IMG/VR virus record: IMGVR_UViG_2534681663_000019
DNA length: 8,764 nt
Direction: 5' to 3' (one strand)
Source of the DNA: a virus
Lineage: Duplodnaviria > Heunggongvirae > Uroviricota > Caudoviricetes
Shown here piece by piece: positions 1,422 through 3,893 of the stretch. The notes under the pieces were generated by a model. That model had not been told where the DNA came from. It made no database searches and saw only the letters and a list, made by a program, of their open reading frames with translations. The stretch's first letter is position 1. Every line of letters begins with the position of its first letter. Position numbers and translations under genes: made by a program.

Positions 1422-3893
1422 TTAAAAATCAGCCTGATTCGGGATCAGTTTTTGCCAGATAGTTGAAACGTATTTTGCCTGGTAACGGGCATCATCCAGC
1501 GCATTGTGGCGCTCACCTTCGAATGGAATAGCCGCCCTGGCATCGAAGTCCATGGCTTTTCCCAGCTCAACGATTGTGCGTACATCGCGATCGTTGTAGT
1601 AACGCCACGGGCAGGGGATCCCCTGCCGTTCGTATGAACGGCGCAAAATCGTGTTGTCGAAGTTGGCTCCATTTCCCCAGACCTGAACAAAAAATTCACC
1701 GGAGTTTTCGTCGATAAATTCCCGCAATTGTAACAGTGCATCATCTAACGGGATTTCATCGGTCATAATGGCAGATTGCGCTTCGCGTGATTGCTTAAGC
1801 CACCATTTAATGGTGTCCCGATCAATGACTCCGCCAGCAGTTTCCAGATCGATAGTCTTACTAAATTCCGGTCCCATATCTCCGGTTTGCGGATCGAAAA
1901 ATATTGCACCTATTGAGATGATCGGGGCATCAGGATTTTTTCCCATGGTTTCAAGGTCGATCATTAGATGGTCACACGTCCTGCTGGTGGATGTGATTTC
2001 TTGATGACCGTTCACCTTAATTGAGTGATCTGCCGTCTCGCCAGTTTCATTATCGCTGGCATGATGCTGATTGCCGCCAGTATTCTCCTTGTGTGGATGT
2101 TCAGCGCCTTCCATTTCCTCCGGATCATCTTCCTGAACTTCAACCTGATACTCTTCATCGAATGTTTCCTGGTATGTTGCGTCGCCCATCACCGCGCCAC
2201 AATCAGGGCAGTTGCCGCCGCCGGTCTGACCGCAGGCGGTGCAGACTTTTTCCACTTCCTGTTGCGCCACTGGTTCAGGCTGTTTCGTTTCTGGCTCGTT
2301 TTGTAACGCATTTGGGCTGTTTTGTTCCGCTTTTTGGTAGTTCCGTTCCGATTCATGCTGGTTCTGGTTTACAGAATCGCGGGTCTGGATCCCCTTAACC
2401 CATTTCGGATCATTCGGGTCGCTAATCCCTGCAACAAATTCTCCGCGAGAGGCAGCAAGCAACTTATCGGCGTCAGGCTGGCTGATATTGGCTGCCTGCA
2501 TAATTTTGTTTACTTCGTCAGCGGTAACTTGTACCGGCCCTGGTTGTGCGGTCGTGTCAGATGCACCAGTATTTTGTTGTGAACCTGAGTATGTACAGTT
2601 TTTGCGGGCGAAATATTCTTCTTTCGTGATTTCAGTAGCCCCGGCAGCCAGTGCCTTATCCAGACCAGAAAGTTTGTTTGCGCGACCGTATTTTTCGCCA
2701 TCCTTGTCGGTGAAGAGGAAGTAGAACGGCCCCTCACGCTCTACAGATGGTTCGACTTCCACTTTGCATTCGGTTTTTTCGTTGTCCGGAATTGCCGTTT
2801 CCACTGCATCAGTTTCTGGTACTGGCGACGAGAGAGTATCAGTTGCGCTCTGATTTCTTCCTTCATCTTCAAACACGCCCTTTGTAGTCAGGTATTCAGT
2901 AATGTATTTGTTCAGTGCCACAGGGTCTTTGTGAATGTCGATCGGACGTTCACGGACAAGGCCAAAAATAGTCTGGCGGTCGTAGCGAAGGGCATCAGGC
3001 TGTTTGCGCATTGATGCCGAGATACGCTTCCAGTCTTCGCGGTCGTTGTCGATAACTTCATTTTTTGCCCAGCGATGGATGCTGCCGTCAATGTTTCCGG
3101 CATCCACATCACCAGGCCAGAGAGCGTAGGCCAGTTCGTCATCCAGTGTTTTCCATGTCTGCTTGTATTCGCGATGAATGGCAGCAATGACCAGGCTGAT
3201 TTTTCCTGTTGAATTTTCAGTGTGCTGTTGATTGACTCTGGCGCGGGCGAGATCAACAACAGACGTGTATTTTCCGGTTTCCTTGCGTTCACCTTCGCGA
3301 CGTTTTTTCCAGATGCGCATCTCTGCCTGAATTTCGGGCCATTTGGCACCAGGCTTACATTTATGCTTAACCCACCCGATGGCATGCAGCTTAAGCTCCG
3401 GATACATGGCGTTAACTTCTGGCATTTTCATCAACGCTTCAACGATATGTCCGTCGAATGTTGCCATGTCTTCCTGCAACAATTCCTGTGCGCTAATAAC
3501 CATATCAACGGTGATGTTTTCACATGTGTCGAACTTAACCATGAGAGCGTTCTGTACTTCAGGGGCCAGCTTGTCAAAAGTGACGTTCATCAGATCGGAT
3601 TCAGTCTCAACTGGGACAAAAGAAGCAGAATCCTCATCCCAGCGGTTTTCCTGCATATATTCAGCATCCCATGAATCGAGGGCAGGGCGGGGTATGCCAG
3701 GTTTATCCTCGCAGATAATAAATTTATAAGCGCAGTCCTGAGCAGCCGGATAATGTTCCAGGAATTGCCAGTGAAATTTTGCTCGAGCACGGCGTTCGTC
3801 GCCAGCTTCAATGGCTGTGGCTACAGCCACAGCGCCTTCTTCCCTTGTTGCCAGTTCGTCAGGAATGGCGGCGCAAATAAAGACTTTACTCAT
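1422..3893 (-). CDS. Large prophage exonuclease (823 aa): RecE N-terminal-like region, acidic linker with CxxC-x7-CxxC zinc ribbon, C-terminal DnaQ-like DEDDh 3'-5' exonuclease domain
   Basis: Uninterrupted 823-codon ORF. The C-terminal ~180 aa carry the DEDD motifs in order ([30 protein letters not shown]), which is diagnostic of the DnaQ/RNase T superfamily. Residues ~475-506 ([31 protein letters not shown]) match, from memory, a segment of the non-catalytic N-terminal part of Rac RecE. The N-terminal ~300 aa probably correspond to the truncated Qin ydfE of K-12 (recollection only). Confidence 0.85.
   Translation of the reverse strand: [823 protein letters not shown]

Follow-up and report, generated by a model that had tools for sequence, protein, structure and literature searches.

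RecE (exonuclease VIII), which is encoded together with RecT in the Rac prophage of Escherichia coli, consists of a long non-catalytic N-terminal part and a C-terminal nuclease, and a 2023 review describes that N-terminal region as "of unknown function" (PMC11611040), a state in which the N-terminal two-thirds of RecE has remained for decades. In a survey of the recombination ("Rec") modules of lambdoid phages, the class with phage Tritos as its prototype has a nuclease and 7-21 top-strand Chi sites, and lacks a single-strand annealing protein (SAP), a single-stranded DNA-binding protein (SSB) and an anti-RecBCD gene (Zheng et al., Genome Res 2025; PMC12315714). The same survey found DnaQ-like 3'-5' nucleases in lambdoid Rec modules, and reported that LLS, a Chi-rich related phage with no Rec module, grows better with RecBCD. 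The DNA analysed here (the window) is the whole 8,764 nucleotide (nt) viral record IMGVR_UViG_2534681663_000019, which its open reading frames (ORFs) and the annotation of its matches identify as the early left arm of a lambdoid prophage of E. coli. Our subject is an ORF of 823 amino acids (aa) lying exactly at positions 1422-3893 on the minus strand, the final gene of the leftward early operon ahead of xis and int, in the position occupied by exo-bet in lambda and by recE-recT in Rac. It encodes a scaffold, a linker and a predicted DEDDh 3'-5' exonuclease. The best explanation as a whole, which we hold with moderate confidence, is that this gene by itself makes up the nuclease-only Rec module of a Qin/Tritos-type lambdoid prophage and feeds the host RecBCD-Chi-RecA route.

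The gene matches PHROG 2082 over its full length (1-823/823), carries the RefSeq names "exonuclease" or "3'-5' exonuclease", and is 94-95% identical at the nucleotide level to its counterpart in phages Tritos, mEp460_ev081, HannyBb and PhiR42_1. Its C-terminal domain (aa 642-813, positions 1455-1970, minus strand) is an intact predicted DEDDh 3'-5' exonuclease head of the DnaQ-like, Rv2179c/DexA type, with a match to Pfam PF16473 (Rv2179c-like 3'-5' exonuclease) that spans profile positions 2-177 of 177 (E 9.4e-68, 227.8 bits against a cut-off of 27) and RNase_T as a weak second Pfam match. The ordered DEDD motifs that the initial annotation had read in this domain are all present: D646-x-E648 (Exo I; positions 1956-1958 and 1950-1952), D745 (Exo II; 1659-1661) and H796-x4-D801 (Exo III; 1506-1508 and 1491-1493). 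These five catalytic residues are invariant across the seven aligned sequences, namely the window protein, five fused homologues and a stand-alone EcD-like protein. An AlphaFold2 model of the domain was obtained at moderate confidence, the alignment being shallow there, and the structure was not used.

The sole sequence relative of this domain with a solved structure is the T4 protein DexA (8KEL, E 1e-7). DexA and its E. coli homologue EcD, both of which act on DNA (PMC12153337), belong to the same Pfam family, have the same DEDDh residues and, in the case of EcD, start with the same M-I-D-x-E-T as the window domain. They differ in that DexA and EcD stand alone as proteins of 189-227 aa whereas the window domain is fused behind a 640-aa scaffold; moreover, the C-terminal domain is 39% identical to the stand-alone EcD-like protein, and its identity to DexA is lower. 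The possibility that the window domain is EcD itself was rejected: the EcD sequence begins with MIDTET and is matched by a protein of 189 aa from a P2-like prophage, to which the window domain is just 39% identical. A counterpart of EcD was seen in a P2-like prophage locus (L027, 5679-6269, minus strand) as a stand-alone 189-aa Rv2179c-like gene, with a ParE-like toxin gene, a Dam methyltransferase gene and cox as neighbours; a prophage origin of EcD is not mentioned in PMC12153337. An internal start that would yield a separate DEDDh protein from the window gene was also considered, given that M644 aligns with the EcD start codon; the sole AGGA sits 14 nt upstream, and the idea was dropped as unsupported.

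Ahead of the nuclease head, the protein combines two different modules. BLASTP against K-12 RecE aligned aa 262-625 with RecE 278-591 (40% identity, E 4e-62), and the NCBIfam RecE profile PRK09709 matched aa 246-625 over positions 271-602 of 877, which places the onset of RecE similarity at aa 246-262. Upstream of this, aa 1-256 are 97% identical to K-12 YdfE and are not RecE-like. A Pfam search found no PF06630, the N-terminal Exonuc_VIII domain of RecE, in the window protein and no match at E ≤ 1 to its PD-(D/E)XK nuclease domain (PF12684/DUF3799), and the score for the RecE equivalog NF007259 was 281 bits against a cut-off of 1269. The initial annotation had described a RecE-type N-terminal scaffold joined to a DEDDh exonuclease; the chimera stands, and so does the RecE likeness of aa ~262-625, while the N-terminal module itself turned out to be YdfE-type. 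Both features on which that annotation had staked its reading were found: the segment is RecE-like, within an alignment whose E value of 4e-62 far exceeds chance similarity, and the catalytic residues are all five intact.

AlphaFold2 modelling, in which regions of pLDDT above 90 were taken as confident domains, resolved the scaffold further. A folded YdfE-type N-terminal module, D1, covers aa 1-205 (positions 3279-3893), followed by a helical domain, D2, at aa 240-345 (2859-3176; pLDDT ~97), where the RecE similarity starts and where dN/dS is 0.12-0.15 relative to Tritos and PhiR42_1. A small beta/alpha domain, D3, occupies aa 385-435 (2589-2741; pLDDT 92-97) between disordered stretches on both sides. 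From aa ~436 to 650 the model is largely disordered, with pLDDT below 50 except at a zinc ribbon of ~70. The ribbon (CxxC...CxxC; C551, C554, C562 and C565, nt 2199-2243) is common to RecE and lies in the conserved RecE-like linker, aa 455-625 (2019-2531), or aa ~455-640 if taken up to the nuclease head. The segment at aa 475-506 (nt 2376-2471), which the initial annotation had matched to the non-catalytic region of Rac RecE, is indeed the same as RecE at 30 of 31 positions; its placement in a folded scaffold did not survive, the segment being predicted to be mostly disordered and forming part of a mosaic linker instead. Foldseek searches with the N-terminal domains returned no structural relative at E < 0.2 in the PDB and none at E < 0.07 in BFVD.

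The linker also appears to be where the protein has been cut and joined. Similarity to K-12 recE at the DNA level (gene nt 1425-1867, 77% identical to recE nt 1365-1765) ends at RecE codon 588, the boundary of the RecE nuclease domain, and the RecE_N-type DEDDh gene of phage vB_EcoS-689R5 is 97% identical to the window gene from nt 1360 to the stop codon. These breakpoints identify the conserved linker as the joint at which modules are exchanged. The middle region and linker share homology with the RecE region of unknown function, and this homology stops at the RecE nuclease boundary. Synonymous divergence is uneven along the gene, with a dS relative to Tritos of 0.56 in aa 346-454 (window 2574-2856) and 0.04-0.17 elsewhere; relative to the 97%-identical locus L001, it is the linker that is the divergent part instead. 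Taken together, the comparisons with Tritos, PhiR42_1 and L001 suggest that the gene has recombined internally more than once.

When aa 1-640 were searched against the full library with phmmer, 246 representatives were retrieved, and classification of the long ones revealed a modular family in which two alternative N-terminal modules (YdfE-type, or RecE-type with PF06630) precede a common middle region and linker that end in alternative C-terminal heads. Three heads were identified on the same scaffold: a PD-(D/E)XK nuclease, a DEDDh nuclease and a Rad52-like annealase. A tandem arrangement was seen in one 901-aa protein (P0122), in which a partial RecE-type N-terminal module (a weak match) and a YdfE-type module are followed by the linker and a DEDDh head, and therefore the two N-terminal modules are not mutually exclusive. 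A fourth group on the same scaffold (P0125, P0240, P0261 and P0269; PHROG 26058, unknown function) ends in a C-terminus of ~200-290 aa with no detectable family.

Whether recT is present varies with the type of nuclease head. Closely related IMG/VR loci, retrieved with linker segment aa 470-600 and examined with up to 9 kb of flank, carried the DEDDh head in 78 of 80 cases; none of the 80 gave a match to RecT, Bet, lambda Exo or Gam, the last being the anti-RecBCD protein searched for, as Abc2 and GamL were not. Among 80 loci with the RecE_N module, 79 had the PD-(D/E)XK head and 72 a K-12-like RecT. In a check of four of the seven PD-(D/E)XK loci that had no K-12-like RecT, three turned out to be interrupted by the end of the contig, and the fourth (L120) encodes a RecT of divergent sequence (Pfam E 3e-43). 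The association also held where the modules are crossed. A 953-aa protein joining the YdfE-type N-terminal module to a PD-(D/E)XK head (L198) is followed by a RecT-family gene (E 9e-30), and downstream of the reverse combination, RecE_N with DEDDh (L033), come a small ORF without annotation at the xis position and then int. Thus, a PD-(D/E)XK head is accompanied by a RecT-family gene wherever downstream DNA is present, and a DEDDh head never is, whichever N-terminal module it follows. As this co-variation persists in the cross-combinations, the exchanged unit is [PD-(D/E)XK domain + recT] on the one hand and [DEDDh domain] on the other.

The window itself conforms to this pattern. Only 64 bp (1358-1421) separate the exonuclease stop codon from xis, whereas Rac has recT, then ralR and rcbA, ahead of xisR at the corresponding position. 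The window protein occupies the same slot as RecE, the last gene of the pL operon ahead of xis-int, and has the same overall plan of a long non-catalytic N-terminal part and a C-terminal nuclease, including the shared middle region, zinc ribbon and linker; it is unlike RecE in its lack of PD-(D/E)XK (DUF3799), PF06630 and recT, and in its predicted polarity, which is the opposite one, 3'-5'. The claim that no recT- or bet-like annealase intervenes before xis was accordingly upheld. The further view that this is not a classical RecET/Red two-component recombinase is likewise borne out, because there is no PD-(D/E)XK domain and no annealase, and by the family-wide co-variation of head and recT.

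The third head was found in 14 representatives, including P0129, P0135 and P0139 (PHROG 2489, labelled "exonuclease"). Its C-terminus of ~290 aa has no above-threshold Pfam match and shows Rad52 signature motifs, together with a weak match to Pfam Rad52_Rad22 (E 0.004) and a similarly weak alignment by hhalign with the core of human RAD52 (E 0.019). A profile of this head gave no match among PDB sequences. The decisive evidence came from stand-alone homologues at E 1e-25 to 1e-39, which carry precomputed PF04098 annotations. Two such fusion genes were located in context (L200, 5989-8337, and L205, 5995-8268, both on the plus strand), each directly upstream of a Gp157 gene; the order in the former is Gam-like gene, fusion, Gp157 gene and then xis-int. 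Since a Rad52-like head can sit on it, the scaffold can carry either half of a two-component recombinase. These fusions are probably the "RecE-2" proteins that were said to "lack a nuclease domain" (PMC12315714).

Beyond the gene itself, the surrounding DNA has the character of the Tritos class. The window contains three Chi sites, all on the plus strand, which is the lambda top strand and the orientation active in lambda, against 0.24 expected, and none of 200 shuffles reached three. One (GCTGGTGG, positions 1983-1990) falls within the exonuclease gene at codons S-T-S (aa ~635-637), exactly where the linker meets the DEDDh domain; all 78 related loci in which this junction was found share it, and it might mark or promote the point of module exchange. 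A second (1394-1401) lies in the 64-bp spacer to xis and the third (7091-7098) in the rightward early region. The Tritos genome has 11 Chi sites (nine on the plus and two on the minus strand) against 1.53 expected for both strands. Across loci, top-strand Chi density was 2.27 per 10 kb with the DEDDh head and 0.31 per 10 kb in RecET loci, a difference of ~7-fold, and the orientation bias in the DEDDh loci was 194:24.

The Tritos gene is 94.8% identical to the window gene at the nucleotide level and has the same neighbours (xis, ydfD, dicB and DicF). When the window was set against the class as a whole (listed in Table 1 of PMC12315714 as lacking SAP, SSB and anti-RecBCD genes, and rich in top-strand Chi), no difference was found, and the window is a member of the class: an early-left nuclease with no SAP or SSB, which is what defines a nuclease-only Rec module. 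For both the window and Tritos, the absence of SAP and SSB rests on annotation and that table, as no direct search for Erf, Sak4 or SSB was made. No annealase is annotated in the complete 46-kb phage Tritos, and Pfam found none in ten further ORFs, mostly annotated as hypothetical.

Among the roles that had been proposed for the gene, 3'-end processing fits best, because its scaffold is common to recombination proteins and the surrounding DNA is Chi-rich. Most likely, the product is an early-left-operon 3'-5' DNA end-processing nuclease of phages that would rely on host RecBCD-Chi-RecA and not on single-strand annealing. The DEDDh head would degrade DNA 3' ends, like its relatives T4 DexA and EcD, and the scaffold would deliver it to the same site or partner as in RecE. 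Recombination-dependent growth would then use host RecBCD-Chi-RecA in place of single-strand annealing, with the enzyme trimming 3' tails or tidying DNA ends for RecBCD loading; this last, and weakest, step is suggested by analogy with the host enzymes ExoI (SbcB) and ExoX. The literature, including work cited in PMC12315714, connects the two host nucleases with a processing of DNA ends by which recombination through the RecBCD and RecF pathways is modulated, and they share the DnaQ-like superfamily and 3'-5' polarity with the window protein. They differ in having no RecE-type scaffold, and no close sequence relationship between them and the window protein was detected.

Several points weigh against an end-processing nuclease that serves recombination. 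Nucleases of the DnaQ-like 3'-5' type are said to "usually inhibit homologous recombination", and this one might hold recombination back rather than promote it; the authors of the same census also call one-gene modules "somewhat suspect" (PMC12315714). The delivery of the head to a target is purely inferential, because the N-terminal domains have no structural relative, and we found nothing in the literature on the function of YdfE or of the full-length protein. RecBCD loads readily on lambda cos-cut ends, and an end-trimming helper may thus be unnecessary. The locus counts given above come from closely related sequences and do not represent independent events.

Finally, the Pfam family takes its name from Mycobacterium tuberculosis Rv2179c, an exoribonuclease and the family's founder, so an RNA substrate is possible. 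Under this alternative, the protein would be a 3'-5' exoribonuclease acting on phage or host RNA, for example in the maturation or turnover of the dicBF transcript or of DicF, which lies 650 nt upstream in the same operon; PGAP indeed calls many copies a "3'-5' exoribonuclease". Among characterised relatives, however, DexA and EcD are the closer ones and act as DNases, and the scaffold is common to DNA-recombination proteins. In addition, the DEDDh gene also occurs on RecE_N scaffolds, and the loci with the Rad52-like head (L200 and L205) have Gam, Gp157, xis and int around them. We consider a role in RNA metabolism very improbable, the least favoured of the alternatives.

A broader extension of the end-processing proposal, which we offer only tentatively, is that the RecE/YdfE scaffold is a general docking platform of lambdoid recombination modules that may bear any of the three heads. 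The DEDDh version would then represent a third phage strategy, a scaffold-targeted 3'-end trimmer that channels Chi-rich DNA into RecBCD-RecA. Were this so, the N-terminal part of RecE (aa 1-~590) would gain a testable function, namely head-independent recruitment to a specific host or DNA target. Independently of that proposal, the retention of the scaffold under purifying selection while its head is swapped between a 5'-3' nuclease, a 3'-5' nuclease and a Rad52-like annealase, with recT coming and going along with the PD-(D/E)XK head, amounts to a natural experiment on the role of the scaffold.

The most interesting rival explanation concerns defence. Stand-alone EcD degrades T4 DNA and protects cells (PMC12153337), and the EcD of that study, identified here from its published primers, is the 189-aa protein discussed above. 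By extension, the window protein could be an anti-phage (superinfection-exclusion) nuclease of the HREX/EcD type, whose head degrades the modified DNA (e.g., with 5hmC) of incoming T-even phages and so shields the lysogen. The same operon encodes DicB and DicF, both of which have been reported to alter phage sensitivity. Against this, the tryptophan of DexA that is proposed to read 5hmC (W152) is replaced by Tyr765 in the window protein; the residue is Y, C or W in the fused homologues and W in the EcD-like protein. DexA D90, which is Ala78 in EcD, where it is said to prevent tetramers, is kept as D718, although this assignment comes from a short loop alignment of moderate confidence. The gene also occupies the Rec-module position of the early-left operon, which is under repressor control, and this location argues against expression in the lysogen; it has no promoter of its own above chance. 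Furthermore, the scaffold is common to RecE and to the Rad52-like annealase fusion, and PADLOC gives just a generic match to a Cas-associated DEDDh family (E 1.5e-5). We therefore regard a defence function as unlikely.

About equally unlikely is a scavenging role in the manner of DexA, in which the enzyme degrades host or other linear DNA during lytic growth to recover nucleotides, or removes competing DNA, and has no part in recombination. This gains some plausibility from DexA, the one relative whose structure has been solved, since the scavenging of host DNA is among the roles reported for it (PMC12153337), and the window gene is expressed together with the host-toxic early genes dicB and ydfD. 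Scavenging leaves unexplained, however, why a RecE-type scaffold of ~640 aa is retained under purifying selection, why the DEDDh head so strictly replaces the PD-(D/E)XK + recT unit and why the loci are enriched in Chi. No degradation of the host chromosome is known for temperate lambdoid phages. Host-DNA scavenging and an RNA substrate are both possible, and both fit the context less well than 3'-end processing; the degradation of incoming or host DNA, which had also been proposed as a role, may still be among the functions of the gene.

The gene is far from unusual. Copies at a coverage of at least 80% occur in 3,533 of the 5,426 complete E. coli genomes (65%), at a median of two places per genome, and a single cluster at 90% identity holds 23,183 sequences. 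It lies at the Rec-module position of the catalogued Tritos-type class (PMC12315714). Given this abundance and a published prototype that is 95% identical, the window represents a member of a catalogued kind and not a new system. Relative to Tritos and PhiR42_1, dN/dS is 0.12-0.38 in every region, which indicates purifying selection, and this extends to the linker (0.13-0.31) despite its predicted disorder. Newer Pfam releases label the non-catalytic parts PF27430 and PF27432 (precomputed annotations).

The same figures bear on the idea that the gene is an evolutionary remnant, a Rec module that has lost its annealase and is now drifting and functionless. The suspicion that the census authors voiced extends to both one- and two-gene modules (PMC12315714), K-12 Qin has just the copy ydfE, truncated by an insertion sequence (IS), and ~8 of the 67 copies with complete context are truncated. 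Nevertheless, the remaining 59 of the 67 contig-complete copies are intact, selection is purifying throughout, and the five catalytic residues are all invariant. The gene is also found in the sequenced phage isolates Tritos, mEp460_ev081, HannyBb, PhiR42_1 and Evi, and in most complete E. coli genomes, as noted above. Decay is accordingly quite improbable as an explanation. In K-12 itself, ydfE shares the upstream operon ydfABC-dicF-dicB-ydfD with the window, and is cut by the insertion sequence (annotated as IS2E/insD7) after ~aa 256, with loss of the linker and nuclease; the window gene is the intact ancestral form of K-12 ydfE.

In the literature examined, we found no explicit description of the RecE-scaffold/DEDDh chimera, of the co-variation of head type with recT or of the Rad52-like third head, and the main text of PMC12315714 describes neither the chimera nor the co-variation. 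Together, these three features make the function of the RecE N-terminal region experimentally approachable, and they offer a handle on how Chi-rich lambdoid phages grow without recombinases of their own. Naming is inconsistent at present, with copies called "exonuclease VIII", "3'-5' exoribonuclease" or "exonuclease"; the gene is not exonuclease VIII.

The remaining features of the window are those of a lambdoid early region. The integrase gene (positions 1-1131, minus strand) is followed by the excisionase gene xis (1109-1357, minus strand), directly downstream of the exonuclease gene, as assigned from the ORF list and the annotation of a matching locus. Directly upstream in the same leftward operon are ydfD and dicB (3987-4363, minus strand), assigned from the annotation of L001 and both present in 76 of the 80 related loci. 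The exonuclease gene has no promoter or terminator of its own above the shuffle expectation. Beyond DicF lie small genes resembling ydfC, ydfB and ydfA and a LexA-family repressor gene (5875-6513, minus strand), past which cro, a YdaT-like gene and a replication organiser are found on the plus strand. The top genomic matches (97%) are prophages inserted beside ompW. The DicF small RNA (4538-4589, minus strand; Rfam RF00039, 76.7 bits, E 5e-16) is intact beside dicB and ydfD, and the window therefore holds a complete, uninterrupted version of the dicBF operon that is truncated in K-12 Qin.

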